NCBI GenBank assembly: GCA_013204125.1
Contig: JABMOP010000605.1
Location: forward strand, 1 to 59,179
From: Rhodospirillales bacterium
GTDB lineage: Bacteria > Pseudomonadota > Alphaproteobacteria > Rhodospirillales > UBA2165
Direction: 5' to 3'
DNA length: 59,179 bases
Shown: piece after piece, positions 7,440-26,030 of the stretch
Layout of the letters: each line of letters starts with the position of its first letter
Numbering within the stretch: the first letter of the stretch is position 1
The notes under the pieces: generated by a model
Database searches by the model: none
What the model was told of the DNA's origin: nothing
Seen by the model: only the letters and a program-made list of their open reading frames with translations
Position numbers and translations under genes: made by a program

Positions 7440-8477
7440 ATGGCTGATACCTCAATCGTGAACGGTGAACTTACCCTTAAACTTTTACCGCACATGTCGG
7501 AGATGACCCACAATCGCTTCGGGCAGCTTTGGCTTGAAAATGCTGAAGCCAATGCACGGCACTTGGGCCAAGGGCAGTCAATTGAGCGTCTTCGCAACGC
7601 TCCTTTAAAGGAAGGCGACTCGGCGGTAGTCATTGCTGCCGGTCCGTCTCTCAAGCGCCATGACCCGGGCCGTAAAATTGTCGACACCGGCTACCGGGGA
7701 ACATTAATCGCGACAGATTCCGCAATGGCCTACTGCCTGCGTAATGGTTTGGTTCCAGATCTTGTCGTGACCCTAGACCCTCATGCCACTCGAATTGTCC
7801 GATGGTTTGGCGATCCGTCCCTTACCGAAGAAAATTTGCGCCAAGACGACTATTTTAAGCGCCAAGATCAAGATGATGCTTTTGCCGATGAGTTGCGCGC
7901 GAACGATGAAATGTTGGAGTTATTAAGCCGACACGGCAAGAATATGCGCATCGCTCTTTCAACTTCGGCCTCGCAAGCGGTCGTCAATCGGGCCATCGAA
8001 ACCGGCATGCAAATTTATTGGTGGAACCCAATGTTTGATGACCCGGATAAGCCCGGAAGTGCATCCGCCAAGCTGCAGGCGCAAAACGGCATGCCCTGTA
8101 TCAACGCTGGTGGGAACGTCGGAACTGCTTGTTGGATGATGGCGGATGTTGTTCTCGCCAAAAAGCATGTCGCATTGGTCGGTGTGGATTTCTCATATTA
8201 CGATGGAACACCGTACAAAAATACGCAATATTACAAGGAGGCTGTAAATCTCGTTGGCCAGGAAAACTTGGATTCTTTATTCGTTAGAATATTTAATCCC
8301 CATTTGGGCGAGTGGTTTTATACTGATCCCGCCTACTTTTGGTATCGCGAAGCCTTCCTGGAACTGGTTCAGGATGCTGACTGCAAGACATACAACTGCA
8401 CAGAGGGCGGTATTCTGTTCGGAGACAATATAGAAGTGGTTAGATTTGACGAATTTCTAGATACATTTAGGAGCTGA
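7440..8477 (+). CDS. DUF115 / MptE-like (motility-accessory-factor, Maf-type) domain protein
   Basis: VVIAAGPSLKRH followed by LIATDSAMAYCLRNGLVPDLVVTLDPH matches the MptE-like/Maf core pattern. 345 aa. Confidence 0.6.
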   Translation: MADTSIVNGELTLKLLPHMSEMTHNRFGQLWLENAEANARHLGQGQSIERLRNAPLKEGDSAVVIAAGPSLKRHDPGRKIVDTGYRGTLIATDSAMAYCLRNGLVPDLVVTLDPHATRIVRWFGDPSLTEENLRQDDYFKRQDQDDAFADELRANDEMLELLSRHGKNMRIALSTSASQAVVNRAIETGMQIYWWNPMFDDPDKPGSASAKLQAQNGMPCINAGGNVGTACWMMADVVLAKKHVALVGVDFSYYDGTPYKNTQYYKEAVNLVGQENLDSLFVRIFNPHLGEWFYTDPAYFWYREAFLELVQDADCKTYNCTEGGILFGDNIEVVRFDEFLDTFRS

Positions 8478-8554: not shown

Positions 8555-10018
8555 TTGCTGGCAGCGATCATTATGGAAGAAGGACATCTGGTCCAAGTCT
8601 ACGATGCCAACGCATGGCGCAAGGGGGACGATACCCTGCGTGAGGTTTTGCTAGCCGATAACTGGGAGGTTATCGCACTGGGCGGAATAACTACGGCTTA
8701 CGGTTCGATAAAGCATATCGTATCAATTGCCGGCGATATTTGCCCCGAAGCTACACTGGTGCTTGGTGGCGGCGTCCTGACTTCGCTGCCGCGTGAGATT
8801 ATGACCTGGTTGCCACATATCGACGTTGGCGTTATCGGTGAAGGATTTATAACTTTTCCCGAAATTCTTCAGAAAGTCGACGATGGCGACGCCGATTGGG
8901 CGAATGTTCCGGGTACAATTTCCCGGAGGGCAGATGGCAAATTGGTGATATCGCAGCAGCGCCAACTGTTGGATGATCTTGACTCTTTACCCTATCCAGC
9001 TTGGGACCTATTTCCCTTGGAGGAAGTCTATTTCCCAAATAGCGCCTCGTTGTATTCCGAAGAAGGTATGCTATCGACGCGGCGGCTCGATATCAATTCA
9101 TCGTATGGATGTTCGATGGTCTGCCGTTATTGTTTCCATCTCGGCATATCCGGTGACATGAAATACGTAGAGAATGCAGATGGCGATTTCAACGTCACCT
9201 TTGACCAAGCAAATGATTACACCAGAACAATCCGCTACCATAGCCCCGAATACATTGTAAATCTGGTGCACCATGCTCGTGAAAAATATGGCGTCGATTT
9301 TATTGGTTTTCTCGACGAAAATTTGATGACTATGGACAAATTTTCGAACCGAACATGGATGAAAGAAATTTGCCGTCTTTGGCACGAACATGACCTCGCG
9401 CCTAAAAAACTTGCTGATGGCACTTGGAGCGGCGTCTATTGGGGTGGCACGAGTCACGCATCGCTATGCACACCGGAAATATTAAAAATTATGGGCGAGG
9501 CAGGCTGCTCTCATCTTGTCTATGGCTACGAATCCTTTGCCCAACACGTTCTAAAGACAGTCGGAAAAGGGGCAACCCGGAAACACAATATTCAGAGTTT
9601 TTTCTGGACCCTGGAGGCAAACATTCGCCCGATCCCCAATCTTATCATTGGGTTTCCGATCGAGGATTTCGATTCAATTCGCGAGAACGTGTTGGCTTGG
9701 GAGGAACTGGGAATTATTGTAAAGCCACATTTCGCAACGCCCTATCCAGGTTCGGAATGGTTCGCAACCTACCGCAAGGAGATAGAGGAGCAGTACGGTG
9801 GCGACCTCGAATCATTCCTTCTTGACGTTGGCGACGCCAGTGCAATTTCGGCAGTTATCTCGCATAATTTCAACGCCGTTGAATTGGTCGTCCTACGCGA
9901 CATGATGCTGTCGAAAAATATCAAACGAATTGACGAATATGAACAAATTTGGCGGAAAAACCATGGACTTCCAGAAGATGCGCCGTCGACGATATTCCAA
10001 AAGCCGTTAAAAAATTGA
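8555..10018 (+). CDS. B12-binding-domain radical SAM protein (class B-like)
   Basis: CX3CX2C cluster motif SSYGCSMVCRYCFH. N-terminal Rossmann-like B12-binding region. The conserved N-terminus continues in frame upstream to 8471, which lacks a canonical start codon (see findings). 8555 is a TTG and the first ATG is at 8573. Confidence 0.8.
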   Translation: MLAAIIMEEGHLVQVYDANAWRKGDDTLREVLLADNWEVIALGGITTAYGSIKHIVSIAGDICPEATLVLGGGVLTSLPREIMTWLPHIDVGVIGEGFITFPEILQKVDDGDADWANVPGTISRRADGKLVISQQRQLLDDLDSLPYPAWDLFPLEEVYFPNSASLYSEEGMLSTRRLDINSSYGCSMVCRYCFHLGISGDMKYVENADGDFNVTFDQANDYTRTIRYHSPEYIVNLVHHAREKYGVDFIGFLDENLMTMDKFSNRTWMKEICRLWHEHDLAPKKLADGTWSGVYWGGTSHASLCTPEILKIMGEAGCSHLVYGYESFAQHVLKTVGKGATRKHNIQSFFWTLEANIRPIPNLIIGFPIEDFDSIRENVLAWEELGIIVKPHFATPYPGSEWFATYRKEIEEQYGGDLESFLLDVGDASAISAVISHNFNAVELVVLRDMMLSKNIKRIDEYEQIWRKNHGLPEDAPSTIFQKPLKN

Positions 10019-10134
10019 ATATCCCGTATTGCCTGAACCACTCTGAAACTACGTCAATTACTCGTCAAACATCACATCGAGCAGCTTCGCGGATCAGCTC
10101 AATAATTGGTGCGGGCGGGGTTCGGTTTGGCTCT

Positions 10135-11220
10135 TCATTTTTCAAGCCCTGATTTTGGAAGTTTAAAAATTTTGTCGATACAAGTGGGTCGCGGGTGCAA
10201 TCCATCAAAGAATTCAGCGGGTCCACACCCGGAGCGGCTAGCATCGAAACTGCCGACAACGGAGACACCCAATTTTGATGCGATGTGACGGATTTTAGCT
10301 TCTGCCTCTTCGACCAAATTCCAATCCTTATTTCCTTTGTAGCGCTCGGTCACGATCGGGTGGTAGGGAGGAAGAAAAATTCGGACCGTAATACCCCTAT
10401 CTAGCATATAGCTGAGAAACTGCTGAAATTTTGATACTTGAGAATTGTTTATTTCTTGATAACCATCGAATCCGTGCATCCGGCCACGACGCATAGTTCC
10501 CAACGACACCTCTCGGGCAACCTCATCCGGTGACCGGTTCCGCCATGTTTCAGGATAGATCAGAGACATATCGGGCCTACGCACAGCGCACTTCGTGTCC
10601 GCATTTTCGGCGGCTTGAATTTCTTTACAACCATCGTCATTTGAACTTTGAATCGATGCAAAAAACCGCCGCAGGGAAAATACATCGGAGTAAGCCCAAC
10701 CGCCGGAGTCTCCAGCCTCCAAGATCGGTACATTAATTTTCCGGCTGAACTTTATAAGGTCTTTGTAATATGGCCGAAAACTTTGATCCCATTTATGGAT
10801 TTTGAAAATCCATGGATCCAGTCCCAGCAAAACGGTCTTCGGATAAATGCCACGTTGGTCATAAAGGGCAAACAGACCCATATACGTTTCGAGAATTGCC
10901 GTATCAACAGCATGGTTAAGCACTCGACCGCTACCTGACAGATGCCTTTTTGCAACCTGCATAGAGCGACTAGAGCCGAAAATAATGCTTTCTGGTGCGA
11001 CATCTAGGCGCCGAATGAGATATGCTTGTACCGCCGGAATATTAAATTCCCAGCTGCCCTGCACATATTTTCCTCCCTCGATGATTTTGGCGATGCGCAA
11101 TTCAACGCCAAAGTCCTCGCGGAAATATTTTCCCAAATTGACCGTGACATTGACTGTGCCAACCAGCCCTAGTGCTGTAAAAAAGACGACAACGAAAGCA
11201 ATCAGGTTGGGCATAATCAA
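10135..11220 (-). CDS. membrane-anchored DltD/SGNH-like acyl-transfer accessory protein (MBOAT partner)
   Basis: N-terminal TM anchor LIAFVVVFFTALGLVG, Ser block IIFGSSRS, C-terminal FFDGLHP (D-x-x-H-like). 4-nt overlap with the upstream MBOAT gene. Confidence 0.5.
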   Translation of the reverse strand: MIMPNLIAFVVVFFTALGLVGTVNVTVNLGKYFREDFGVELRIAKIIEGGKYVQGSWEFNIPAVQAYLIRRLDVAPESIIFGSSRSMQVAKRHLSGSGRVLNHAVDTAILETYMGLFALYDQRGIYPKTVLLGLDPWIFKIHKWDQSFRPYYKDLIKFSRKINVPILEAGDSGGWAYSDVFSLRRFFASIQSSNDDGCKEIQAAENADTKCAVRRPDMSLIYPETWRNRSPDEVAREVSLGTMRRGRMHGFDGYQEINNSQVSKFQQFLSYMLDRGITVRIFLPPYHPIVTERYKGNKDWNLVEEAEAKIRHIASKLGVSVVGSFDASRSGCGPAEFFDGLHPRPTCIDKIFKLPKSGLEK

Positions 11221-12758: not shown

Positions 12759-14576
12759 TTATCTCTCGAAGTTGGGTGTGTTGTTTTCAGTATATGCAGC
12801 CAACCTCCGAAATAACGGGCTCGTCTCAAGAAGTTCATTAAACGTACCAGTTGCCTCCAAACGACCTTCATTCAATAAGACGAGGCGGTCGCAATTTCGG
12901 ACCGTACTAAGACGATGGGCGATAATAATCAACGTCTTTTGGCCGCGAAGCATATTTATGGATTCCATAATGATATTTTCTGTTTCAGTATCAAGCGCCG
13001 AAGTCGCTTCATCTAGAACCAAAATGCTGGGGTTGTTATAAAGTGCCCGCGCGATGCCAATGCGCTGACGCTGTCCACCAGATAAGCGAACACCGTTCTC
13101 GCCCAATACAGTGTCGGCCCCTTTTGGCAAACTCTCTACGAAATCTCCCAAAGCCGCCATTTTTAAAGCTCGTTTTACTTGGTCTTCATCGATGTCCCGG
13201 TCAACCAACCCAAGCGCCACATTATTTCGAATGGTATCGTCAAAAAGATATATGTGTTGTGGAACATATCCGAGGTTCTTCTGCCAGGCGCGAATATTGT
13301 TATTCACATCGCTGCCATTAACGAGAAGGCGGCCTCCTGAAGGCAACAATAGGCCGAGCAGAACATCAACGAGTGTTGTCTTACCAGCGCCGGAAAGCCC
13401 GACGAGAGCGGTCGATTCTCCTGACTGGATTGATAAAGAAATATCGTTGAGAACGGAGGCGTCGCCGCCGGGATATTCGTAGTCAACATGTTGAAATTCT
13501 ATAGCAAAATTTTCGGTGCTAAGTTTGTCGTCGCCGACGATGGCGCTAAGGGGGGACGGCTTGGATTCGAGAAAATCATAATAAATTTCGCTGATCGCCG
13601 CGGCACCTACTTTGATACTGGCCAAACTGCTGGCAATGCGGTTGAGAGAAGGAAGCAAGCGAAAGGCGGCGATGCCAAATATACCAATCTTCGGCAGTAC
13701 ATCTGTGAGGTCCTTCGAAGACCTGAGCAACATCACCATCACTAAAATAAGGACAGCAACGGCAACGATTTCGATAATCGGCCGCGGTGAATAAGTCACA
13801 ACATTCGCGAAATTTTTATATCTAGCCTGTTTTTTGCGGTGATATGCAAAGGCATCCGCGAAATATTTTTCGCGCGCCAGTATCTTGGTTTCCTTAATGG
13901 CGCCAAGCCCTTGGCTTACCCAAAGGTTCACATACGCTCCGTGGTAATGGATCCGGCCTCCAATCCTTTCAATGTGCTTACGCAAAGTAAAATAATAAAT
14001 CGTCAGCGTTAATCCCAACGCAAAACTAGCAACAATGGCTTCTACTGGACTGACAATTGTGATGGCTGTAAGAACACCCAAGCTGACACATGATTCCATA
14101 ATCAAATTCAGAAATGGTAACAAGCCAGCCTGAAATACATTGGCTGTTGCAATCGTCACATTGTGCATGAGTTTGGCCGAATTTCGAAGCAAGTGGAATG
14201 GATATGGCCGAGATAGGTAGGCCCCAAACAAGCGTGTGCAAAATTCAGCCTCTTCATTGAAAATGAACCGCCCCTGGAGAAATTGGAAGCCTAGCAAAGC
14301 AATATTCTTGACGGCGAAAAATACGATGATGACGGCGCCAAATATGACCGCAAATTCCAATGGCTTTGATTGGCCGTAAGTGCGATAAAATTCTCCGATA
14401 ACCGGCATAGACATTATTTTATCTGGCGAGACGAGGAGTTGTAGAATCGGCAGAAACAACCCGATGCCGATCAATTCCAGCAAGGCGGTGCCAATCATCA
14501 TGACAAAAAGCCCACCCATCTTGAATTTCGCTCGCCTGTCGAATAACGAGAATAATTGGTGAATTTGTTTGATCAA
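12759..14576 (-). CDS. ABC exporter, fused permease + ATPase half-transporter (MsbA/PglK-like)
   Basis: Six-helix N-terminal TMD. Walker A GLSGAGKTT, signature LSGGQRQR, Walker B ILVLDEATSALD. Confidence 0.9.
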   Translation of the reverse strand: MIKQIHQLFSLFDRRAKFKMGGLFVMMIGTALLELIGIGLFLPILQLLVSPDKIMSMPVIGEFYRTYGQSKPLEFAVIFGAVIIVFFAVKNIALLGFQFLQGRFIFNEEAEFCTRLFGAYLSRPYPFHLLRNSAKLMHNVTIATANVFQAGLLPFLNLIMESCVSLGVLTAITIVSPVEAIVASFALGLTLTIYYFTLRKHIERIGGRIHYHGAYVNLWVSQGLGAIKETKILAREKYFADAFAYHRKKQARYKNFANVVTYSPRPIIEIVAVAVLILVMVMLLRSSKDLTDVLPKIGIFGIAAFRLLPSLNRIASSLASIKVGAAAISEIYYDFLESKPSPLSAIVGDDKLSTENFAIEFQHVDYEYPGGDASVLNDISLSIQSGESTALVGLSGAGKTTLVDVLLGLLLPSGGRLLVNGSDVNNNIRAWQKNLGYVPQHIYLFDDTIRNNVALGLVDRDIDEDQVKRALKMAALGDFVESLPKGADTVLGENGVRLSGGQRQRIGIARALYNNPSILVLDEATSALDTETENIIMESINMLRGQKTLIIIAHRLSTVRNCDRLVLLNEGRLEATGTFNELLETSPLFRRLAAYTENNTPNFER

Positions 14577-14592
14577 TAAATATTATCCAAAA

Positions 14593-15231
14593 TTATTGAG
14601 ATATAAATTCCGTGAAAATTTGACGTCCGACCGAAGCACTCATTTCGGGATGAAATTGGAAACCAAATAAATTCTCATGGTGAATAGCCGCACAGACAGT
14701 GTGGCCATGATAGTCAATTTCAGCCAGCCTATTAGCGGGATTGTCTGGTACGGCGGCGTAGGAATGGACGAAATAAACTTGCTCCCCTTCCTTAGTTTTT
14801 GAAAGCGGCGTTTCATTCCAACCAACGCCTGCTGACATTCTTAAGGGCATCCACCCGACCAAAGGGATTCTGTGTGGTTGGCCATCAACGGTGGTGCTGG
14901 GAATAAGACATACCTTACCTGGTATTAAATCGAGACCCTCGCTCACTCCAAACTCTTCACTTTTACTCAACATAAATTGCATACCTAGACATATGCCCAT
15001 AAACGGTCGGCCTCTATTGGTAAACTTGTGAATGGCTTCGGACAGGCCGTTGGCGTTAAGAACCTGCATACCGTGGGAGAAGGCGCCAACGCCCGGTAAT
15101 ATAAGAAAATCCGCCGTGGAAATTTCACCGGCAGTGGTAGCAACAACCGCATCACCGCCGGCATTTCTAACAGCACGGACAACCTTGAGAAGGTTACCAA
15201 TACCACAATCCACGATGGTTATTTTCGCCAT
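14593..15231 (-). CDS. hisH: imidazole-glycerol-phosphate-synthase-type glutaminase subunit (HisH paralog, WbuY-like)
   Basis: ILPGVGAF, nucleophile GICLGMQ, HSY, QFHPE. 212 aa. Confidence 0.9.
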   Translation of the reverse strand: MAKITIVDCGIGNLLKVVRAVRNAGGDAVVATTAGEISTADFLILPGVGAFSHGMQVLNANGLSEAIHKFTNRGRPFMGICLGMQFMLSKSEEFGVSEGLDLIPGKVCLIPSTTVDGQPHRIPLVGWMPLRMSAGVGWNETPLSKTKEGEQVYFVHSYAAVPDNPANRLAEIDYHGHTVCAAIHHENLFGFQFHPEMSASVGRQIFTEFISQ

Positions 15232-15977
15232 TAAATTCGGCGCACCGGTAATTTGGCGTCAAGGGCCGCGTTTCTAATATCGGAGACGGTGGAGCGGTTG
15301 GCATGTAGGACATCGGCCATGGCCGCTGCATTAACATTTCCACCTTCATACAACTCGGACAGGTGCTCAAACACTCCCATACCTCCACAAGCAATCAGAG
15401 GAACATCGACATATTCCGTTATCGCCGCGTAAAGAGGAATCTCATAACCATTTCGGGTACCTTCCCGATCTATGGACGTAACCAATATTTCGCCGGCGCC
15501 GAGTTCCTGCCCTCGCTTTACCCAGTCAATCACATCTACGCCTGAACGCTCGCGACCATTATCCGTATAACATTCCCACTTCCCAGCGCCGATATTTTTT
15601 GCCTCGATTGATAAAACAACGCATTGAGAGCCAAACGCATTAGCAATTTCGGAGATAAGTTCCGGACGATTAATAGCCGCTGTATTCAAGGCAATCTTGT
15701 CCGCCCCGGCAAGAAGAAGATCCCGCACATCATCCACCGAGCGGACGCCACCGCCAACGGTAAGGGGGACAAATATATTTTCAGCCGTATAGCTGACAAT
15801 TTCTTTTAAGTTGTTACGGCCATAAAGACTGGCGACAATATCCATATAGATAAGCTCATCTACACCATCTTCGAAATATTCTCGAGCTCGTTCTTGAGGA
15901 TCACCGACCACCCTCAGCCCTTCCAAATGCACCGTGTTAATCAGGTTCTGGCCTTTAATATCAAGGCGGGCTATCAA
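15231..15977 (-). CDS. hisF: HisF-like cyclase/synthase subunit (WbuZ-like)
   Basis: IARLDIKG, GVDELIYMDI, PLTVGGGVRS, GADKIALNTAA, IACGGMG. TTG start, 1-nt overlap with hisH. Confidence 0.85.
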   Translation of the reverse strand: MIARLDIKGQNLINTVHLEGLRVVGDPQERAREYFEDGVDELIYMDIVASLYGRNNLKEIVSYTAENIFVPLTVGGGVRSVDDVRDLLLAGADKIALNTAAINRPELISEIANAFGSQCVVLSIEAKNIGAGKWECYTDNGRERSGVDVIDWVKRGQELGAGEILVTSIDREGTRNGYEIPLYAAITEYVDVPLIACGGMGVFEHLSELYEGGNVNAAAMADVLHANRSTVSDIRNAALDAKLPVRRI

Positions 15978-16023: not shown

Positions 16024-17058
16024 CTATTCTATCATTTCTAATGTGATTTTTGTGCCGGCGATAATATCGCGGCAAGCACATTTCTCCAGCAGTTCGCCAA
16101 TGCGAGACGGTGTCATACCGTCACCTGGTCGTTGAGCTACGATCAAATCCTCCGTCAGAACGGTTCCCTTTGCGATATCCACCTTTGCTGTCAGACTTTT
16201 TCGAGCCCACAAAATTGATTCCTGCTCAGCCATTGACAAAATCTTTTTGCCCCCAACAACCGCGGCTTCAACATCCCGGAGATCAGAAATAAATGACGAT
16301 AAATTTGTAGGATCACAACTTACCTTCCAGTCTTGCGCATTTGGAACGTCACGGTCGATGGTAATGTGCTTCTCAAGAACATCCGCGCCGAGAGCAACCG
16401 CCGCCAAGGGTACCGCGGTTCCCGCAGTGTGATCGGAATATCCGACAGGTCCGGGGAAGAACTCCCTGATCTGGCCCATGACAGATAGGTTCACATCGGC
16501 AGGTTCGGTCGGATAACTAGTGACGCAATGTAGGATCGCCAATTGGCGGCAACCTTCGTCAGCTATGACTTCGGCGGCAGCATATATATCGGTCAACTCA
16601 TAGAGCCCTGTGGACAGAATAATAGGTTTGCCAAGACGAGCGATTTTGCGCAACCAGGGAAGATTCCCAACTTCACCGGATCCAATCTTAAAGGCCGGCA
16701 CGTCAATTTCCTGGTCGAGGAATTCCACAGATTCTTCGTCATGGCCTGTACATATGAAAGTGATGCTCCGCTCGCCGCAGTACTTATAAATTGACTTAAT
16801 TTGATCGTTTGAAAGTTCTTTCGAGCGCAACCTTTCACGCCACTCAGGGGCGCTTGGGCCAAAAAGTTTATCGGTTTGAAAATGCTGGAACTTAACAAAA
16901 TCGGCACCCGCTTCGACCGCCAAATCGACCAAAGCGAAAGCCTTGTCCATGCTGCCGAAATGATTGACGCCGGCCTCGGCGATAACCAAGCAAGGCGCAC
17001 CCGGGCCGATGGTTCGGTCCGATATCCTAAACTCCGATTGAAAGTTGTTGATGGCCAT
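16024..17058 (-). CDS. neuB: NeuB-family nonulosonic acid synthase (copy 1)
   Basis: CLVIAEAGVNHFGS, GADFVKFQ, GYSDHT, C-terminal SAF-type domain. ATG 17058 is preferred over the ORF-track start at 17112, which would overlap sqdB by 40 nt. Confidence 0.85.
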   Translation of the reverse strand: MAINNFQSEFRISDRTIGPGAPCLVIAEAGVNHFGSMDKAFALVDLAVEAGADFVKFQHFQTDKLFGPSAPEWRERLRSKELSNDQIKSIYKYCGERSITFICTGHDEESVEFLDQEIDVPAFKIGSGEVGNLPWLRKIARLGKPIILSTGLYELTDIYAAAEVIADEGCRQLAILHCVTSYPTEPADVNLSVMGQIREFFPGPVGYSDHTAGTAVPLAAVALGADVLEKHITIDRDVPNAQDWKVSCDPTNLSSFISDLRDVEAAVVGGKKILSMAEQESILWARKSLTAKVDIAKGTVLTEDLIVAQRPGDGMTPSRIGELLEKCACRDIIAGTKITLEMIE

Positions 17059-17072
17059 TGATTGGAACCCGA

Positions 17073-18266
17073 TCAGACCAATATATTGCGCGTCGGCGTG
17101 GGGAAGCACCACTTTACATTTGGAAGAATAAGCTGCTTATCGATGCGTTCCTTATGCTCAATCGCGACGTCAATCATGTGCGAGACAACTTCGTCGGTCA
17201 GTAGGTGCGGCTCCAAGCCCAATTCCACAAACTTTGAGTTCTTGGCGTTAAAATAGTGGTCCTCCTGCTCTACGCGCGGATTCTCGATATGCTCCAACTC
17301 AACATCCAATCCTTTCGAGGTGGCAACCTTCTGGACCAGTTCAGCAAGTTCTATGACTGAGAATTGTTCGGTGAATTGGTTAAAAACTCTGAATTCGCCT
17401 GATTCAGCTGGGTTTAAAACGGCCAATTCTACGCAACGCAGCGTATCACGTATGTTCAAAAATCCGCGAGTTTGCCCGCCTTTACCATAGACCGTTAGCG
17501 GCGTTCCGGTTACCGCCTGCACGACAAATCGATTGAGAACGGTGCCAAAAATAGAGTCATAATGAAAGCTGGTTGAAAGATCTCGATCCAGAAGTGTTTC
17601 GTCGGTTTCAATACCGTAAACAACACCTTGATTTAGGTCCGTCACCCTCATCCCCCAAATACGACACCCAAACTCTAAATTGTGTGAGTCGTGAACTTTC
17701 GACAAGTGATAAAAAGAGCCAGGCTTTTTTGGGTAGAGCATTCGATCTTTGCGACCGTTATGCTTAACGTCCAGCCATCCTTCCTCAATATCAATATTGG
17801 GTGTACCGTATTCTCCCATGGTTCCCAACTTAACTATATGAGCGTCAGGGCAGGAATGCCTCAAGGCGAACATAAGGTTCATGGTGCCCAGAACATTGTT
17901 GCGTTGCGTGGCAACGGCTTTTTCCCGATCGTGCATTGAATATGGCGCCGACGGTTGTTCAGCAAAATGAACGATCGCTTCGGGTTGGAATTCTTCCAAC
18001 ATAGAGTATACAAAACGGTGATTTTCGGCGATATCGCCGATGAAAAGATTGATATGTTTATTCGAAATTTCTTCCCATCTGCTTACACGCGATTGCAGGG
18101 TACGGATGGGCATTAAGGGCTCAACACCAATTTCCGCTTCCCAATACCGCTTTGCTAGATTGTCGGCGATTGCGACCTCGTGGCCTTGCGCCGAGAAATA
18201 CATGGCGGTCGGCCAGCCAAGATACCCGTCACCGCCAAGAACTAAAATTCGCATACGCTTCTCCAT
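17073..18266 (-). CDS. sqdB: UDP-sulfoquinovose synthase (SQD1/SqdB family SDR)
   Basis: Full-length by-eye match to SqdB hallmarks: LGGDGYLGWPTA, KLGTMGEYGTPNIDIEEG, PGSFYHLSKVHDSHN, TDLNQGVVYG, YGKGGQTRGFLNIRDT, FRVFNQFTEQFSV. 397 aa. Confidence 0.8.
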   Translation of the reverse strand: MEKRMRILVLGGDGYLGWPTAMYFSAQGHEVAIADNLAKRYWEAEIGVEPLMPIRTLQSRVSRWEEISNKHINLFIGDIAENHRFVYSMLEEFQPEAIVHFAEQPSAPYSMHDREKAVATQRNNVLGTMNLMFALRHSCPDAHIVKLGTMGEYGTPNIDIEEGWLDVKHNGRKDRMLYPKKPGSFYHLSKVHDSHNLEFGCRIWGMRVTDLNQGVVYGIETDETLLDRDLSTSFHYDSIFGTVLNRFVVQAVTGTPLTVYGKGGQTRGFLNIRDTLRCVELAVLNPAESGEFRVFNQFTEQFSVIELAELVQKVATSKGLDVELEHIENPRVEQEDHYFNAKNSKFVELGLEPHLLTDEVVSHMIDVAIEHKERIDKQLILPNVKWCFPTPTRNILV

Positions 18267-18326: not shown

Positions 18327-19547
18327 TTATTCGACAACATGTCTCAACTCCCACTTATTGCCTACCATGTGCCACAGAAGAGGGGAACGAAAACGGTTAA
18401 TCACCTGCCAAAACATGTCTTCGTCAATTTCAATATATTCCAGAAATTCGTTGAAATACTTCCGCGGAAATTCGCCGTCATAGCGGTGAATAAGAGCTAT
18501 TGCCTCTTCCCTAGTAAGATGACGGTTTCTCACTTCCTGAGCAGATTCATAGGTGGCGCGCCCGAGCCCAAATTTGATATAGGTCGTGTAATAATGGAAC
18601 CCATCAGCCTTATCGTCGAGGCTATTATATTTTGAATAAGTACCTTCCGTGCGATCAGGATTTGGTAAAAATCCGCAATTTTCTACAGCGTAATAATATT
18701 TTTCCTGTGGGCGCCACTTCTCGTAAAACCCCATATGATGGACCTCAACATTTTTCTCTTTGATGTCTTCAAGGGCGACCGGCGTATAAGGTTGGAGATC
18801 ACCCTCGTCCAGACCTTGATCCAGCAATTCTTGATATACGTACCCCGAGAGATAAATATTTTTTTGTTCTTCCCGGGGAATTGAATAATATTTTGGATTC
18901 ATTTTTGGCTCGAAGGCTTCGCTAATATTGGTTCCACCTTCGGCTTGACTTTCGCCATACATCACCAGGTTGACGTTATATTTGAGCGCCATTTTGGGGC
19001 CGATTTGCTTTTGCCCTAAAATGAACGGTTGAAAGGGGTGAAGCAAATTGACGAAAGCCATCCGCGTTAGCATTCGATGGACCCGCCGATTGGGGTGAAA
19101 GCTTATATTATCGTATCCACCATCCAACCACGCCTCAAAATTACGCAAGCCAATTTCGGTGTACATGTGGGGCGGCCAAGTTACGGTCAACGGGTTCATG
19201 CCGTACTTGTATTTTAGAACATGGGAGACAAACATACTGTCTTTGCCGCCGCTTCCTGGAACAATGACATCATATGATCCATCCGTACGACGATGACGAT
19301 CCAACAACATCTCGAGTTGTTGCCGACGATCATCCCAATCAATTTCGTTATACTTCAGTTCGTGGTATTGGCAGGCGGAGCAGATGCCGTTTTCGTCGAA
19401 AAAAATGGTTTCTTTCTTGTTTTGGTTCTTAAATTCCACAGTCGATGAAGGCCGTTGGTTGGAAACGACGCAGCGCTTACAAAACTTGATCTCCTGGGGA
19501 AGGCCCTGGTCGTGAAGTGACGTGAGCTCCGAGTTTCCCCCACTCAT
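18327..19547 (-). CDS. N-acetyl sugar amidotransferase (PP-loop, WbuX/PseA-like), copy 1
   Basis: N-terminal Cys pairs CKRCVVSNQRP...CSAC, PP-loop VPGSGGKDS, HPFQPFILGQK. 406 aa. Confidence 0.85.
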   Translation of the reverse strand: MSGGNSELTSLHDQGLPQEIKFCKRCVVSNQRPSSTVEFKNQNKKETIFFDENGICSACQYHELKYNEIDWDDRRQQLEMLLDRHRRTDGSYDVIVPGSGGKDSMFVSHVLKYKYGMNPLTVTWPPHMYTEIGLRNFEAWLDGGYDNISFHPNRRVHRMLTRMAFVNLLHPFQPFILGQKQIGPKMALKYNVNLVMYGESQAEGGTNISEAFEPKMNPKYYSIPREEQKNIYLSGYVYQELLDQGLDEGDLQPYTPVALEDIKEKNVEVHHMGFYEKWRPQEKYYYAVENCGFLPNPDRTEGTYSKYNSLDDKADGFHYYTTYIKFGLGRATYESAQEVRNRHLTREEAIALIHRYDGEFPRKYFNEFLEYIEIDEDMFWQVINRFRSPLLWHMVGNKWELRHVVE

Positions 19548-20043
19548 AAGGAGAGCCCAGTTTCAAATCTTTGCCCCTTATGGGCACTTCGATCAGGCTG
19601 GTACGGGGCATGACCCATACCGGCTTTTTCGACAAACCGGGCGGGCATAGCCCCGCCGTGAGCAGAATGTGACCGGTTGTGGATATAATCATACTTCCGG
19701 GCCGCGAGCCCGAGGCCCTCGCGTGTGCCGAGCGCCCGTTTACAGCCACCACGGCGGCGCATCTGTGAGCCTTCCTCGCAATAGATACGACGTAAATTCT
19801 TCTGCTTCATATTTAGTCTTCCCGGGTCATTAGGATAGGCAGACGGTAATAGCCAAATCGCCGACGCTCCGCAGGCCGCGCCCAAAGGCGCTCACGGATC
19901 GGGGCATCGTCAGCTTTAACGGACTGGTAGCGAACCGAACTCCGATCGGTTCCGGTGGTGTTGTATGCCCGCAGCTCTCTAATCACGCATGTCTTACGCA
20001 AATAAAAAGTGGCCTCGCTGAACCTTGAACGCTTCATAGCCAT
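19544..20043 (-). mobile_element. decayed IS3-family insertion-sequence remnant (internally deleted, frameshifted transposase)
   Basis: Two overlapping short ORFs carry islands of IS3 OrfA/OrfB sequence. These are MKRSRFSEATFY; DDAPIRERL..ERRRFGYYRL; NMKQKNLRRIYCEEG.QMRRRGG.KRALGTR; and a C-terminal YIHNRSHSAHGGAMPARF. About 0.5 kb remains, against about 1.2-1.3 kb for an intact element. Confidence 0.6.
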
Positions 20044-20294
20044 CTCCTTTATAGGTGATGGACTTTACTTTAAAATGGAGGAAGATTCGCAGCTCGCGTA
20101 ACCTGATCGTGAAGGTCTTGGTTTGCACCGGAAACAAAGCTCAAGCGCTACGTAAATTAAACATTTCCCTTGTTTATGGCATGCCGTGAAACGGCTTAGG
20201 ATTTCACCGCATGAATTACCCCACAAGGGGCTAAATGGCAACCGCTTTGGGAGCGACCGCTAGCGGCATAAACATGACTCTATCTGGCGCGTTT

Positions 20295-22460
20295 TCAGTG
20301 CTGCAACCCGGAAATTCGATAATGATGTTCCGATTTTCTGGTCAGTTGCGTTTGGTCGAAAATCGGATGGCGGAACAGCTTTTGAACATGCACTTTTGAC
20401 AGAATACGTCCGATACCAACTATCGAGTCGCCATATATGCCCAAATACCGCTCGACCAGTTCCTTTTGGCTATCTTCGAGGACAAAATGCACTGTTTCGG
20501 GTTTCTCAAATTGGTATGCAGAGAGAGGACCGGGATCCGGATCGTCCTCGTAGGCTTTCACGTTAAAACGCATTTTAGCAATAACGTCTTTATCCCGAAA
20601 CTCGAACAAGTTCGTCATACGGTGCAGATGGTAGGTTTGGGCGTCCTTGGTAAAGGCGACGGCATCTTCAGAATCAACCTTAGACTCGCGAAGGTAATGA
20701 AGGAAGGTGCTCTGCGCCAGTTCCGCCAACTGGGGCCCATGCTGGGTAATGGCTAGAGTCTTGTAAATGAACAACAGGTTATTGCCCAAATCCCCTTTGA
20801 TATAACTGTCAATAACGTCCGGACCGTGGACAAATTTCACCAAGTCTTCGCGTCGCTCCCACAACTCATCCCGCGTGGCCTCGGTAAAGGATTCATAGAA
20901 TGCGCTGAGGTCACCATTGACCAGTGCCTCTGATATCAGTTCCATCCACCTGTATACCGACAGCCCGAGTTGTCGGAGAAGTTTGAGTAGAGTACCGAAG
21001 ATACCGTCATTGTAGAAGATCGTCACTATCAGATGGAATTTCCGGCAATCGACATAATCTTCGAAAGATAGCGTATCCGAGGCCACGCAAATTTCTCCGA
21101 TCTCAGCAGCCACTATGGGTTCGCCGAAAAGCTCAAAATTTCCATAGCAGCGAGGCAGGACACGGTATTTAGACACCATACCAAATTTTTCTTTGCTGAT
21201 CTTGGTATTCATGTCTGTACCGGGCAGCAGCATAAGCTGGAACAGAAGGATGTTAGTAAAGCCCGCATCCATCACCACCTGTACCGTGCGATGATGTGTG
21301 GCTTTTGAATCGCCCGGGAGTCCGAGGATGATTTCGCTGTATGAATTTGCGCCAACTCGGTTGGCGTCCAACGCCAGTTCCATAAGGCCGTCAGCCGAAA
21401 TATTGGTCCGCTTTATATTTTCAAGAACTTGTTTGTCTAGACTTTGTACTGACCCTGAAAGTCGTAGCGCGCCATCAATCAATTGAGAGGCCTCCAGAAC
21501 ACGTTCTTTCTTGTTTTTGCCGGTGGCAACGTTGATATATTCGGGCCATTGATATTTTTTACGTGTGCGGGCGAGTTCTTTGCAGGTATCAATATCCTCC
21601 GGATACATACCGAAGTTCGAATCCGCTATGAACAAATCGTTGCGCCCGCCTTCCTTCCTCCCCTCGGCCATTTTTTTTCCGATATAATCGAGTTCAGAAA
21701 ATATTTTTTCACCGGAATTTTTGTATACTTTGTTGTAATAACCGACACCTTCAACGCAAAAGGTGCAACTGAAAGGGCAGCCGCGGTTTGTTTGAATAAT
21801 CGGCAGCAGTAGGCCATCAAAAAATTCGTCCAGACGACCGCCGGCATAAGGTGAGGGAATCTCCGTCAGATCGCGAATGCGTTCAATGGAATCAGCAAAT
21901 TGAGCTGAACCATCTTTGGAAATAGCCTGAACGGACGGAATGCGCGATCGCTTTACAGCCTCGACGTCTGAGGAATGTTCATCCAGCGATTCCAACAGTC
22001 TCGCGAAGGCTAGCTCACCTTCTTTGATAATATAGAAATCGACCATCGGAATTTTTTGCAGTAATTCCATTTGCTCGTCGACGTCCACTGGATAATTTGG
22101 GCCGCCAAAGACGATGACGGTTTCCGGAGATTTCCGTTTGACCGCTTCAGCAAACGCATAGGACAGTGAAAAATTCCAAATGTAATTACTGAAGCCAATG
22201 ACGTCCGGCGGGCCAGATTCCTCCAACGCTTCAATTAATTTTTCTGGAAACTTAAACAATCGGATTGGTTCGGGCAACTCGATCTGCGTTTCGGTAAATG
22301 TCGCAATGCCGCCGATTGCGTTGGGAATGACATCGGCTGCTATGGTTTGTTGAGTATAGGTCAGATCAGCGATCCATACAGATAGATCGACCTTTCGGCG
22401 CGACGTGGCGCCGGAGTTCTTCCTGTTAATGTCCCGTTCGGAATTATTTTTATGCATCAT
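20295..22460 (-). CDS. B12-binding-domain radical SAM protein (721 aa)
   Basis: B12-binding-like N-terminal region (VIGFSNYIWNFS, VIVFGGPN), radical SAM motif NRGCPFSCTFCVEG, and a long C-terminal extension. Confidence 0.8.
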   Translation of the reverse strand: MMHKNNSERDINRKNSGATSRRKVDLSVWIADLTYTQQTIAADVIPNAIGGIATFTETQIELPEPIRLFKFPEKLIEALEESGPPDVIGFSNYIWNFSLSYAFAEAVKRKSPETVIVFGGPNYPVDVDEQMELLQKIPMVDFYIIKEGELAFARLLESLDEHSSDVEAVKRSRIPSVQAISKDGSAQFADSIERIRDLTEIPSPYAGGRLDEFFDGLLLPIIQTNRGCPFSCTFCVEGVGYYNKVYKNSGEKIFSELDYIGKKMAEGRKEGGRNDLFIADSNFGMYPEDIDTCKELARTRKKYQWPEYINVATGKNKKERVLEASQLIDGALRLSGSVQSLDKQVLENIKRTNISADGLMELALDANRVGANSYSEIILGLPGDSKATHHRTVQVVMDAGFTNILLFQLMLLPGTDMNTKISKEKFGMVSKYRVLPRCYGNFELFGEPIVAAEIGEICVASDTLSFEDYVDCRKFHLIVTIFYNDGIFGTLLKLLRQLGLSVYRWMELISEALVNGDLSAFYESFTEATRDELWERREDLVKFVHGPDVIDSYIKGDLGNNLLFIYKTLAITQHGPQLAELAQSTFLHYLRESKVDSEDAVAFTKDAQTYHLHRMTNLFEFRDKDVIAKMRFNVKAYEDDPDPGPLSAYQFEKPETVHFVLEDSQKELVERYLGIYGDSIVGIGRILSKVHVQKLFRHPIFDQTQLTRKSEHHYRISGLQH

Positions 22461-22499
22461 GGTTCTGGAGTCCTCGATAAACCGGTTCCCATTCGCAAA

Positions 22500-23210
22500 T
22501 CATTCGGGCGCGACACTCGCCGTCCCTGCAGGCTTGCGCCCCCATCCAAGCGCTTGGCGTTCCTTACTCCACCGAATCCACTTATGCCAGCTTTTCTTAG
22601 CCGGAATCAGTCTCGTAATATCGGCCAGGAAAAGGAAAAATCTAGAGTGCCAGACTGATGGCAGCTGAGTGATAACCTCTGTCCGCACGTCGGCAAATCC
22701 ATATATTTCAAGACACATCCCAAGCGACCGAGTTGTGAAGGGAGTAACATGGGTAAAGCCGGCGTAGTAGTCATCCCAGCAATAGATCCAATCGGGTGTG
22801 AAGATAGCAACCTGTCCGCCGGGCTTTAACACCCGCATGATCTCTTTCATGTAATTCTCTATCTGCGGCAAATACAGATGTTCAATTACGGATTTGCTGA
22901 ATACCACGTCGACGGAGTTGTCATCCAAAGGTAACGGGTTTTCGGCAAAGTTGCAGATGTGGGTAACATTCGGCCCCCCTTCGCGATCGATGCCGATTAT
23001 ATCGAACCCTAGTTCTTCAAGCGCTGCCATCTGGTCGCCGCGACCACAACCCAAGTCGAGAACTACCCCTTCCCTGACTTCGAGTTGATCGTAGAAGATA
23101 TGTTTCATCAGAAGGTACGGGTAACGGTTAGTTGGGATTCCCGCCAACACGACATTTCGGTAGGAGTGGTCCGGGCTGATTTTGGTATTCGGGTCCGCTA
23201 CATTGCTCAT
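22500..23210 (-). CDS. class I SAM-dependent methyltransferase
   Basis: VLDLGCGRGDQ, IIGIDRE, VVFSKSVIEHL, VLKPGGQVAIFTPD. Confidence 0.85.
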   Translation of the reverse strand: MSNVADPNTKISPDHSYRNVVLAGIPTNRYPYLLMKHIFYDQLEVREGVVLDLGCGRGDQMAALEELGFDIIGIDREGGPNVTHICNFAENPLPLDDNSVDVVFSKSVIEHLYLPQIENYMKEIMRVLKPGGQVAIFTPDWIYCWDDYYAGFTHVTPFTTRSLGMCLEIYGFADVRTEVITQLPSVWHSRFFLFLADITRLIPAKKSWHKWIRWSKERQALGWGRKPAGTASVAPE

Positions 23211-23935
23211 GATTGCGCTTGGTCCATATGTGGCAGAGATATCAAGCCGCTGGTCAGCATAGCTGCGGCCAGCAGGAGGTCTTCTGGGCCATCAAGATCG
23301 AAGTCGTAAGGGCTGGGAATTTCCGACGCGACCGATGGCTCCGAGAAAAAATCACCGCCGGCTAATAGCGATTGCGGTCGGGCGGCAACGACATTGCCGA
23401 AGACGAAATATTTCGGCTTGCGTTGTTTGTTGTAGGCTACCTTACGTTCCTCTGCGAAGACGAAAGACGCCCGTCCACTTTCTACCTGCCTTTGATTCCA
23501 GGCATGATGATTATGCGGAACAGGCGTCACGGTTTGGGCGGAAACGGCCTCTGTTTCACCTCCTGTAATTGCCAACAGATCCGTTATATGTTCGGGCAGA
23601 AGAAACGGACTGGTCGGCTGAATGAGAAACAACCAATCGGGCGCGATTTCCTGATGCTTCCTCGAACGATCCAAAAACTCTCGACAGACATCGGCGACAG
23701 CAGTGTCGTCGCCGGCGAGTTCATCGGGGCGGCGGTCGATCTCGATACCCAAGCCGGCCACGGTCTCGGCTATTCGGTCATCATCAGTGGAACACAAAAT
23801 GCGCTCAAAACATCCGGCCGACAGCGCTGCCCTGATGCCATATTCAATCAAGGGGTGCCCATTTACTGAGACAAGGTTTTTTTGCGGAATACTCTTCGAT
23901 CCCCCCCGCGCCGGAACCATTGCCCAGGCTTTCAT
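23207..23935 (-). CDS. neuA: acylneuraminate (CMP-nonulosonate) cytidylyltransferase family, copy 1
   Basis: AMVPARGGSKSIPQKNL..NGHPLIEY, LIQPTSPF. 4-nt overlaps on both sides. Confidence 0.8.
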   Translation of the reverse strand: MKAWAMVPARGGSKSIPQKNLVSVNGHPLIEYGIRAALSAGCFERILCSTDDDRIAETVAGLGIEIDRRPDELAGDDTAVADVCREFLDRSRKHQEIAPDWLFLIQPTSPFLLPEHITDLLAITGGETEAVSAQTVTPVPHNHHAWNQRQVESGRASFVFAEERKVAYNKQRKPKYFVFGNVVAARPQSLLAGGDFFSEPSVASEIPSPYDFDLDGPEDLLLAAAMLTSGLISLPHMDQAQS

Positions 23936-24888
23936 AACGCCGGCTCCAGACCAAGGGCGCGCGCCGCCTTCTCAACCACGTACATTTGAGTTTCACTCCA
24001 GGCGTCTATTGTCGATCCACCGATATGTGGCGTTAGGATTAGGTTGTCATGATTCCGAGCGTATTTAACAAGCCGACTCTGAGAAAAATGCGCGGGGAAA
24101 TTTGGGTCGTACTCTCCATCAATGGTGTCTAATGCCGCGCAGTGGAGGTGACCTGATTCCAGCAAATCGAGCAACGCATCCGTATCTAGAAGTTCACCCC
24201 TGGCGGTGTTTATCACCATCGCGCCGGACGGCAACGCCGCCAGAATATCGCTAGAGATCAGATTCTCTGTTTCGGCATTGGCCGGAGCATGGAGACTAAG
24301 AATATCAGCATTGGATGCCAACTGATTTAAGGACGCCAAGCCGCCTTCGATGTAAGGATCGTAATAATCCACAGCCATGCCCATAGCGCGCGCGATATCC
24401 GCAACCTTTCGCCCCAACCGCCCATAACCGACAATGCCGAGGCGCAGTCTGGAAAACATCCGGGGCGCACCCCACGGTCGCCGGTCCCAATTACCCTCAC
24501 ATGTGCTTTTATGCGCTGCCGGAATTTGTCGCCAGGCCGCTAGCATTAATCCGATGGTATGTTCTGCGGTCGGCGTAATTGTATCAAGAAAGTCCTGTTC
24601 ATCATGCAATGCACAGACAGCGATACCTCGGCGTGCAGATTCCTTCATATCAATATGAAACACACCAGTGGTGTTCGAAATCACGGCCCTTAAGTTTGGA
24701 CAACGATCTAATTTTATTTTATCCAAGGCATAACCCAATGGGGCAAACAATACTGATACACTTTCTAGAACCGCATCGGTATCGTTCCGCGGATCATCCA
24801 ATTCAATTAATTCGAACAATTCTCTGGCGCGGCTGAGCGGCGCTCGTTGATAACTCAAAACCCTGTAATAGAGTGCGTTGGGTTTCAA
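23932..24888 (-). CDS. D-isomer-specific 2-hydroxyacid dehydrogenase (phosphoglycerate-dehydrogenase-like)
   Basis: NAD motif LGIVGYGRLGRKVA, INTARGELLD, TPHIGGST. Confidence 0.8.
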   Translation of the reverse strand: MKPNALYYRVLSYQRAPLSRARELFELIELDDPRNDTDAVLESVSVLFAPLGYALDKIKLDRCPNLRAVISNTTGVFHIDMKESARRGIAVCALHDEQDFLDTITPTAEHTIGLMLAAWRQIPAAHKSTCEGNWDRRPWGAPRMFSRLRLGIVGYGRLGRKVADIARAMGMAVDYYDPYIEGGLASLNQLASNADILSLHAPANAETENLISSDILAALPSGAMVINTARGELLDTDALLDLLESGHLHCAALDTIDGEYDPNFPAHFSQSRLVKYARNHDNLILTPHIGGSTIDAWSETQMYVVEKAARALGLEPAL

Positions 24889-26030
24889 TATGTCATCCTC
24901 TTAATCATCAGGCGATCATCGATGGGAATAGTGGAAAGAACGGAAACAATGCGCTCACCTGCCCGGCCGTCACCAAAGGGCTGTTCACAGTTTCTGGCTG
25001 CAGCCTTAATTTCAGGATCGGAGATCGCACCTTCCAAAGCACGTTGAATTGCTCCACGTTCATGATCCACGGTGACCATGTTGCCGGCATGTTGTCTGCC
25101 CTCTTGACGGCGCCCAATATTTACGGCCGGCAATCTGAAATAAGGTGTTTCGATGAGCCCGGCTGAAGAATTGCCAACCAACACTGCAGCGCAATTTAGC
25201 AGCCCCCAAAACAGAAAAGCGTCCAGATTGACCCGAACTCGAAATTGCGGCGGTTGCGCAATTTCATCTATTGCTGTCAGTACACCTTCATACCCTGGAT
25301 CGGAACAAGGATGGACAACAACAGCTTGGTAGTTACTGGCTCGGACCGCCTCTAGGGTCTCGGACATTTGAAAGTAGGCGTCTTGCGGTGCCGTGGTTTC
25401 CGAATGTTGTAGAACAACGATGACCGGTTTTTCCGGATCTAAGCTTAGTTCCTTATATACTTCGTTTGCCGGAGCATATTCACCGGCGACAATCAAGTCG
25501 ACATGATTATCGCCGACCTGATGAATTCGCCACGGCTCCTCTCCCATGCTGCGAATGCGGTCGGCGCTGCTTTCAGTAGACGGAAAATGCAAATTGGCCA
25601 GCTTGGTAACGGCATGGCGTATTTGTTCGTCATGTGACCCCGATAGATCGCCGCCTTGCAGATGGGCGATTGGTATTCCTAAAACGGTTGCCGCCATTGC
25701 TGTCGCCAAGACTTCGCCGCGATCGCCATAGAGGACACAAATATGCGGATCATGCTCCTCCAATACATCGGCCATTTTGGTTGCGCAGAGACCAAGGGCG
25801 CGGGCTCTGCTCACCGCAAGGTCATCCTGTTGCTCCATATCGACAGCTGCGGTAACAACGAATTCTTTCTCGACTTCTTTGATGGTTCTACCAAACTTAG
25901 CGCTGACATGTTGATCGGTAACGACCAATTGTAGATCCAGATTCGGGTCATCGCGAATCAGCCTCAACATCGGCTTCATAGCGCCAAATCCACCTCGTTT
26001 TCCTGTAAGTACAAATATTTTTCGCATCAT
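24885..26030 (-). CDS. NeuC-like UDP-sugar 2-epimerase (hydrolysing), divergent copy
   Basis: IFVLTGKRGGFGAMKPMLRLI, LQLVVTDQHVSAKFGRT, HLQGGDLSGSHDEQIRHAVTKLANLHF. Confidence 0.75.
   Translation of the reverse strand: MMRKIFVLTGKRGGFGAMKPMLRLIRDDPNLDLQLVVTDQHVSAKFGRTIKEVEKEFVVTAAVDMEQQDDLAVSRARALGLCATKMADVLEEHDPHICVLYGDRGEVLATAMAATVLGIPIAHLQGGDLSGSHDEQIRHAVTKLANLHFPSTESSADRIRSMGEEPWRIHQVGDNHVDLIVAGEYAPANEVYKELSLDPEKPVIVVLQHSETTAPQDAYFQMSETLEAVRASNYQAVVVHPCSDPGYEGVLTAIDEIAQPPQFRVRVNLDAFLFWGLLNCAAVLVGNSSAGLIETPYFRLPAVNIGRRQEGRQHAGNMVTVDHERGAIQRALEGAISDPEIKAAARNCEQPFGDGRAGERIVSVLSTIPIDDRLMIKRMTY

Follow-up and report, generated by a model that had tools for sequence, protein, structure and literature searches.

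UDP-sulfoquinovose synthases of the SQD1/SqdB family (EC 3.13.1.1) act on UDP-glucose and sulfite and are represented by Arabidopsis SQD1 (PDB 1QRR and 1I24) and cyanobacterial SqdB. The family is best known for supplying the membrane sulfolipid sulfoquinovosyldiacylglycerol (SQDG). Alphaproteobacteria carry a family member in the sqdB-sqdD-sqdC operon (Sinorhizobium meliloti and Marinovum algicola; Rhodobacter type). The archaeal homolog Agl3 of Sulfolobus acidocaldarius serves a surface N-glycan through a proposed sequence of oxidation, dehydration and sulfite addition; its product is transferred as sulfoquinovose, no linkage to NeuB or NeuC is described, and replacement of Arg101 (AEQ-R-SAP) by alanine abolishes activity (PMC4388408). 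According to a 2025 paper, the known carbon-sulfonated sugars are limited to sulfoquinovose, rare sulfofucose and transient sulforhamnose. We found no paper in the open literature that links a sulfoquinovose synthase to the synthesis of nonulosonates, the sialic-acid-like sugars made, for example, by the NeuC-NeuB-NeuA pathway to CMP-N-acetylneuraminic acid (CMP-Neu5Ac) in E. coli K1 and N. meningitidis. Here we describe an SqdB-like gene from a Rhodospirillales bacterium that belongs to a distinct subfamily of the SQD1/SqdB family and lies in an undescribed pathway context, among genes for nonulosonate synthesis; the chemistry of its product is predicted. The gene is located in contig JABMOP010000605.1 of the metagenome-assembled genome (MAG) GCA_013204125.1, and this whole stretch of 59,179 nucleotides is referred to as the window.

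The open reading frame (ORF) at 17073-18266 lies on the minus strand and encodes 397 residues; the plus-strand frame at this position is riddled with stops. A preliminary description of this DNA, which gave no strand, had reported five SqdB hallmark blocks in a 397-residue ORF, and translation of the minus strand recovers all five. A GGAG motif precedes the second ATG (18254) at a spacing of 6 nt. Because of this spacing and because gene callers return a 393-residue product (P0002), the gene most likely spans 17073-18254 on the minus strand and encodes 393 residues. The protein aligns over its full length with Arabidopsis SQD1 (1qrr/1i24; 526 bits, E 4e-157, ~63% identity), window residues 5-386 matching residues 3-382 of 1qrr, which bears out the earlier assignment to the SqdB/SQD1 family of extended short-chain dehydrogenases/reductases (SDRs). 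The source MAG (3.58 Mb, 609 contigs, 81% complete) contains this single close family member.

The catalytic core is intact. The NAD site (GxxGxxG) reads GGDGYLG, and the blocks GTMGEYG and SFYHLSK preserve T145, M146, G147, E148, Y149, Y182, H183 and K186 (SQD1 numbering, used throughout); H96 is likewise kept. As signature motifs, a review of nucleotide-sugar dehydratases assigns [ST]MG...Yx3K to UDP-sulfoquinovose synthases and DE, SE or DK pairs to 4,6-dehydratases. The window protein has the [ST]-M-G...Y-x3-K signature together with His183, and shows T-M-G instead of the acid/base pair of the 4,6-dehydratases RmlB, LegB, PseB and PglF. Dehydratase models scored at most 53 bits, against cut-offs above 270. 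The UDP-GlcNAc 5,6-dehydratases TunA and Pen are also extended SDRs and form on UDP-N-acetylhexosamine (UDP-HexNAc) a 5,6-ene, which is an intermediate of the SqdB mechanism. However, they carry TCE or [ST]DK rather than TMG, show no close sequence relationship to the window protein and add no sulfite. The NCBIfam equivalog NF041015 aligned end to end with 463.6 bits, under its 575-bit cut-off; this model is apparently tuned to the archaeal type, and the sub-threshold score alone is weak evidence. We also mapped onto SQD1, by spacing, the 20 residues of a UDP-sulfoquinovose pocket taken from a published COACH prediction for diatom SQD1. Eighteen of them are identical in the window protein, the two changes being R101P and A239V.

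Despite this proximity to SQD1, the window protein is not a standard SqdB but a member of a distinct subfamily with six fixed substitutions. In a tree of 82 SqdB-family sequences, with branch support from the Shimodaira-Hasegawa-like approximate likelihood ratio test (SH-aLRT), a clade of 16 rows (the window protein and loci L005-L015, L019, L026, L029 and L049) was split off with a support of 97. Its hosts are Alphaproteobacteria, a Rhodocyclaceae MAG, Gaiellaceae and Saccharibacteria. A branch sets apart 62 canonical, Arg101-containing rows, among them SQD1 and the Nostoc, Kribbella and Acidobacteriota enzymes. The segment around Arg101 reads AEQPSAP in all 16 clade members including the window protein, so that the arginine essential in Agl3 is absent. 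Among loci from species-representative genomes (80 fetched), position 101 is Arg in 61 and Pro in 20. Six alignment columns switch completely between the 62 canonical and the 16 clade sequences: R36K, D40E, R101P, R229S, D231H and D267N. Set against SqdB, SQD1 and Agl3, a comparison which the preliminary description had proposed, the protein thus keeps its place in the SqdB family and the catalytic core, but it falls into a separate clade with Pro in place of Arg101.

The sqdB enzymes of S. meliloti and Marinovum algicola belong to the same family and come from the same bacterial class as the window gene. They are only ~41% identical to the window protein and nevertheless retain R36, D40, R101, R229 and D231; each of their genes is followed by one for a glycogenin-like transferase of glycosyltransferase (GT) family 8, the sulfolipid operon type. 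As these five residues are kept even at ~41% identity, they are conserved in every sulfolipid-linked enzyme compared. The clade of the window protein, although much nearer to SQD1 in other respects, has replaced all five. Arg101 is kept in Agl3 as well.

An outgroup-rooted tree recovered the nonulosonate-linked clade with a support of 84, the order of the deep lineages being poorly supported. In view of this weak support, we do not claim that the subfamily arose from within the canonical clade. Pro101 was rejected as a lone marker, since it occurs in 69 of 97 full-length family representatives, many of which, including Chloroflexi-type lineages, keep R229 and D231; a signal comes only from all six positions combined with membership of the clade. 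A separate four-member clade of the SqdB family (L055, L059, L075 and L081; match at ~10001-11170 in each; support of 100) combines Pro101 and Asn267 with retained Arg229 and Asp231. Its neighbouring genes encode a thiamine-diphosphate enzyme, a GT2 protein, an amidase and a chorismate-binding enzyme, and include neither sulfolipid nor nonulosonate genes.

The window contains homologs of all three enzyme families of the CMP-Neu5Ac pathway close to the SqdB-like gene, all on the minus strand. NeuB2, a NeuB-family nonulosonate synthase (16024-17058), is the next gene downstream. Its ORF extends to 17112, and the probable true start is the ATG at 17058, 15 nt past the SqdB stop, giving MAINNFQSEFRISDRTIGPGAPCLVIAEAGVNH. 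The protein matches PF03102 with 237 bits and TIGR03569 with 325.6 bits, under the NeuB equivalog cut-off of 399.65. NeuC2 (24885-26030), a NeuC-type hydrolysing UDP-HexNAc 2-epimerase, scores 350.8 bits with TIGR03568 (cut-off 235.9). CMPt2 (23207-23935), a cytidylyltransferase of the CMP-nonulosonate synthetase type, matches the PseF model TIGR03584 at a sub-cut-off 103 bits; its equivalents in L085-L100 carry PF02348. Relative to the CMP-Neu5Ac pathway, the cassette adds the SqdB-like enzyme and, in some genomes, the reductase CysH, and its NeuB forms a clade of its own.

This association recurs in other genomes. Homologs of NeuB2, NeuC2 and the cytidylyltransferase adjoin the SqdB-like gene at 14 of the 16 clade loci in the reference set and at none of the 62 canonical loci, and clade members were never found beside SqdX or SQD2. 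Among further metagenome contigs with close homologs, NeuC, NeuB and the CMP-transferase lie alongside in six of seven (L085, L087, L090, L091, L099 and L100). In these six, the genes for NeuC, CTP_transf_3, the SqdB-like protein and NeuB are contiguous, mostly with a 2-hydroxyacid dehydrogenase gene, and a 4-nt overlap between the reading frames of SqdB and NeuB is common. The minimal recurring set consists of NeuC, the cytidylyltransferase, the SqdB-like protein and NeuB (L013, L100 and L102). The gene is patchy among relatives, with one carrier (of a distant type) in 24 genomes of the same family and two in 16 others of the same order. A homolog from a Pseudonocardia autotrophica plasmid record (57.7% identity) lies beside a GT2 gene, not beside nonulosonate genes. 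Canonical enzymes have other partners: an adjacent SqdX-like GT4 in Nostoc, and GT21/GT2 with a PMT_2 protein in Acidobacteriota.

Two side observations concern these neighbourhoods. The Arg-type SqdB genes of Acidobacteriota (L020, L021 and others; ~10001-11150) adjoin a GT21/GT2-type transferase and an ArnT-like PMT_2 protein and not SqdX, which suggests a different acceptor for sulfoquinovose in these organisms. Sulfotransferase-domain genes recur near the nonulosonate-linked cassette (L087, 1-698 and 6141-6983; L098, 14834-15757; L099, 12822-13505), a hint that the glycans may be O-sulfated as well.

The coupling of the SqdB-like gene to its NeuB was analysed by co-phylogeny and by a census. 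In a tree of 24 NeuB copies from SqdB-like loci, the 16 copies nearest to the SqdB-like gene form one clade (SH-aLRT 98), and the 8 second copies from these loci, the second NeuB of the window among them, all fall outside it. The three sub-groups of this NeuB2 clade match those of the SqdB tree. His106 and Trp284 are invariant in the clade and variable in other NeuB copies; NeuB2 reads T-G-H where the usual motif is T-P-F, position 106 being Phe, Tyr or Met elsewhere. These changes may affect the substrate pocket. The census covered 400 sampled species genomes of the same class. SqdB matches of at least 63% identity were found only in genomes G045, G232 and G235, and these were also the only genomes with NeuB2-type matches (47-49% identity, E no worse than 1e-94; the next best NeuB match had 42% identity and 1e-72). 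A further 58 genomes carry other NeuB types without this type of SqdB, and in seven, more distant relatives of SqdB occur without NeuB as a neighbour.

All three carriers have the six-residue signature and the partner genes. NeuB2, NeuC2, CMPt2 and SqdB are contiguous in G235, and G045 has a longer cassette with the dehydrogenase and a B12 radical SAM enzyme. G232 is split, with NeuC and the SqdB-like gene on one contig (L104, C61) and NeuB2, the 2-hydroxyacid dehydrogenase and CMPt2 on another (L105, C72). Such a division would be expected if SqdB and NeuC worked on UDP-sugars and the other enzymes on later intermediates. A second census of 300 genomes in the phylum of L013 revealed no further carrier. 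Co-phylogeny and census support a functional coupling of the SqdB-like protein and NeuB2. They do not support its exact form, because there are only three carriers, relatives are not independent and inheritance of an island also yields co-phylogeny. The gene sets indicate that, across several phyla, the subfamily has diversified jointly with a NeuB, a NeuC and a CMP-transferase dedicated to it. In view of this and of the fixed substitutions, the gene is more than an ordinary SqdB in nonulosonate surroundings.

Evidence on the source of sulfite comes from two relatives. Directly upstream of the SqdB-like gene, L009 and L013 encode an adenylyl-sulfate/phosphoadenylyl-sulfate (APS/PAPS) reductase, CysH (NF002537, 184 bits against a cut-off of 154), with the CC...CxxC iron-sulfur and C-terminal ECGLH motifs. 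Both genomes are of Saccharibacteria type and small (~1.0 and 0.6 Mb). This CysH is the sole CysH match in each, and no Sat, CysD or CysI was found in either genome. That a solitary enzyme for sulfite production lies within the cassette speaks for continued sulfite use by the subfamily.

Two sets of nonulosonate genes occur in the window. The first, set A (~35.4-45.2 kb), is of the legionaminic acid type and comprises a LegB-like dehydratase, a LegC aminotransferase, NeuC, NeuB, NeuD, a PtmE-like nucleotidyltransferase and a second WbuX. Set B surrounds the SqdB-like gene in the order NeuC2, D-2-hydroxyacid dehydrogenase, cytidylyltransferase, methyltransferase, B12 radical SAM enzyme, WbuX, SqdB-like protein, NeuB2, WbuZ/HisF, HisH and PglK-type ABC transporter; set B itself lacks a dehydratase and an aminotransferase. 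The SqdB-like gene lies in the middle of this co-directional run, in which genes abut or overlap. Directly upstream of it is the WbuX-type PP-loop N-acetyl-sugar amidotransferase (18327-19547, minus strand; TIGR03573, 347.9 bits against a cut-off of 203.2), an enzyme type that forms acetamidino groups. The position between a NeuB-family synthase and a PP-loop amidotransferase, as first described, is thereby confirmed, and the WbuX-SqdB adjacency is repeated in L085, L086 and L091. The ammonia-supplying partners of WbuX follow NeuB2 on the same strand (14593-15977), with a WbuZ/HisF-like protein at 15231-15977 and a HisH-like glutaminase at 14593-15231.

The remaining members of set B, also on the minus strand, are less constant. 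The D-2-hydroxyacid (phosphoglycerate-type) dehydrogenase (23932-24888) belongs to many but not all cassettes, being present in L006, L007, L029, L085, L087, L090, L091, L099, L103 and L105 and absent from L013, L100 and L102. The B12-binding radical SAM enzyme (20295-22460) and the class I methyltransferase (22500-23210), together 20295-23210, are accessory tailoring genes found in part of the cassettes and are syntenic in L029, L085, L091 and L103. A PglK/MsbA-type ABC half-transporter (12759-14576) recurs beside the cassette in L029, L085, L087, L090, L100 and L103. Next to NeuC2 lies a gene for a 585-residue protein without Pfam or NCBIfam match (26039-27796), a candidate transferase; it has a homolog beside NeuC2 in L005, and genes of ~600 codons without Pfam matches occupy the same position in L085 and L091. 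Note that the B12 radical SAM gene and WbuX are separated by a gap of ~0.75 kb (19548-20294), which measures ~58 nt in the closest syntenic relative, L085. Family scans of a 113-residue ORF in this gap (19544-19885) gave no match, and transcription of the SqdB-NeuB2 part may be uncoupled by the gap from that of the genes upstream. Elsewhere, the island encodes an MptE-like/DUF115 (Maf-type) protein (7440-8477, plus strand; Pfam, 59.7 bits) as well as GT2, asparagine synthase-type amidotransferase and MBOAT proteins. These genes are consistent with decoration of a protein or surface glycan, and the MptE-like protein is compatible with attachment of the island's nonulosonates to proteins, flagellin being one example.

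We propose, tentatively and with somewhat less than even confidence, that the gene product is catalytically active, represents a separate, nonulosonate-linked branch of the SQD1/SqdB family, and would act as a sulfite-dependent 6-sulfonating enzyme of a UDP-(N-acetyl)hexose and feed NeuC, NeuB and the CMP-transferase to yield a sulfonated nonulosonate. In an SQD1-like cycle, the bound NAD+ would oxidise the UDP-hexose at C4, elimination of water would generate the 4-keto-5,6-ene, and sulfite would add at C6 before C4 is reduced again. The substrate would probably be UDP-GlcNAc rather than UDP-glucose, in view of R101P, of the 2-acetamido substrates of NeuC-type enzymes and of the neighbouring WbuX amidotransferase. 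R101P, the one direct change in the pocket, takes away a bulky side chain, and the substrates of known NeuC-type enzymes are UDP- or GDP-sugars with a 2-acetamido group. NeuC2 would then hydrolyse and 2-epimerise UDP-6-deoxy-6-sulfo-HexNAc to 6-deoxy-6-sulfo-ManNAc, NeuB2 would condense this sugar with phosphoenolpyruvate to a 9-deoxy-9-sulfo nonulosonate, and CMPt2 would activate the product to the CMP-9-deoxy-9-sulfo nonulosonate. Amidination by WbuX/WbuZ/HisH, possibly methylation, and transfer to a surface protein or glycan would follow.

The specific chemistry is put forward yet more cautiously, as roughly a one-in-three conjecture: UDP-6-deoxy-6-sulfo-N-acetylhexosamine would be converted to a CMP-9-deoxy-9-sulfo sialic-acid-like sugar, here probably 5-acetamidino, which would be the first carbon-sulfonated nonulosonic acid. 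As a variant, UDP-glucose might lead through sulforhamnose to 9-sulfo-Kdn. Because the distinct subfamily has co-diversified with the NeuB/NeuC/CMP-transferase set, entry of the product into the nonulosonate pathway, or its identity as a modified UDP-sulfosugar, is more likely than a use as plain sulfoquinovose. A sulfonated sugar in the surface glycan, as suggested in the preliminary description, remains the leading idea and gains from the orphan CysH upstream of the gene in relatives.

Several observations weigh against the proposed sulfonated nonulosonate, which is drawn from sequence and gene neighbourhood. With the Agl3-essential Arg101 absent, sulfite addition, and even activity, is not to be assumed, and Pro101, which 69 of 97 family representatives share and which is common in many other branches without a characterised member, is no marker of the proposed function. 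Adjacency of CysH was seen in only two related loci. Mildly adverse is that cysH, cysD and Xsc were not found above cut-off in the source MAG at 81% completeness. A resemblance to CysI is limited to a C-terminal fragment at a contig end (C446:5-256), so that assimilatory sulfate reduction is either missing or unassembled there. Co-inheritance of the whole island would likewise produce the SqdB/NeuB co-phylogeny. Finally, clade members L014 and L026 and the close homolog L098 have no NeuB or NeuC neighbours. L026 shows no glycan context, and the gene in L098 is surrounded by asparagine synthase, GT2, methyltransferase and sulfotransferase genes. The polysaccharide genes of L014 (5683-11343) include those for a PglF-like dehydratase, a WecA-like initiating transferase and a UDP-sugar dehydrogenase, and the UDP-sugar product of the SqdB-like enzyme is presumably used directly there.

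Such direct use is the core of one competing explanation, which we regard as unlikely on balance but as a serious contender: the enzyme would be an ordinary UDP-sulfoquinovose synthase, a glycosyltransferase of the island would place sulfoquinovose into the same surface glycan or glycoprotein, and NeuC2, NeuB2 and CMPt2 would separately make a Neu5Ac-type sugar. These three enzymes form a complete Neu5Ac-type pathway by themselves, self-sufficient without SqdB, which could supply a second sugar. The catalytic core and pocket are very near to those of SQD1, adjacency to CysH would suit any SqdB that uses sulfite, GT2 and other candidate transferases are at hand in the island, and L014 offers a setting without NeuB and NeuC. 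The fixed residues point the other way, as Agl3, which also serves a glycan, and all sulfolipid-linked enzymes down to 41% identity keep Arg101; the six fixed changes would therefore need another explanation. Moreover, among the 400 sampled genomes the dedicated NeuB2 occurs only with this type of SqdB (three of three carriers and none other), SqdB and CysH are interspersed in the nonulosonate operon with frames that often overlap or nearly abut that of NeuB, and in the split arrangement of G232 it is NeuC with which SqdB is paired.

A loss of sulfite addition, along the lines of the 4-keto-5,6-ene chemistry that the preliminary description gave as its alternative, is improbable in our estimation, though the replaced arginine gives it substance. 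The enzyme would then be a UDP-HexNAc 5,6-dehydratase or another former of a 4-keto-5,6-ene, and its product would be reduced, methylated or captured to give a 9-deoxy or C9-modified nonulosonate free of sulfur. Agl3 itself releases UDP-Glc-5,6-ene when sulfite is absent, the position essential in Agl3 is Pro here, two arginines are lost in the subfamily, sulfite-forming genes were not seen in the 81%-complete source MAG, and radical SAM enzymes accompany many cassettes. However, the radical SAM genes are missing from the minimal cassettes L013, L087, L099, L100 and L102, TMG is the signature of sulfoquinovose synthases rather than a dehydratase acid/base pair, and the pocket is otherwise intact at 18 of 20 residues. 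The orphan APS/PAPS reductase directly upstream, in two tiny genomes without other sulfate assimilation genes, also counts against a sulfur-free product. Least credible, with only a very slight chance, is a role in making UDP-sulfoquinovose for SQDG by means of a glycosyltransferase encoded in an unassembled part of the genome. In its favour are the prominence of this role in the family and the incomplete (81%) state of the MAG. Yet no partner of the SqdX, SQD2 or SqdD type was found in the window, in agreement with the preliminary description, or in the rest of the 81%-complete MAG; the best match to Nostoc SqdX has 34% identity over 142 residues of a generic GT4. The sampled sulfolipid-linked enzymes (Nostoc sqdB-sqdX; S. 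meliloti and Marinovum sqdB-sqdD) all fall outside the clade, and the gene lies amid a co-directional run of abutting and overlapping glycan genes.

If the cassette constitutes one pathway, its product would represent a new class of bacterial surface sugar, a sialic-acid-like residue tipped with a sulfonate that is permanently charged and resists hydrolysis. It would also mean that the SQD1 family includes a substrate specificity not known before, and would give a reason for the retention of a lone sulfite-forming reductase by genome-reduced bacteria of the candidate phyla radiation (CPR). Should sulfoquinovose instead be transferred directly, it would be a component of a bacterial surface glycan, for which we found no description in the open literature. 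A sulfonated nonulosonate, if real, would be a sulfosugar class found in Proteobacteria, Actinomycetota and ultra-small CPR bacteria alike, and its synthesis would consume sulfite by a route that has so far gone unnoticed.

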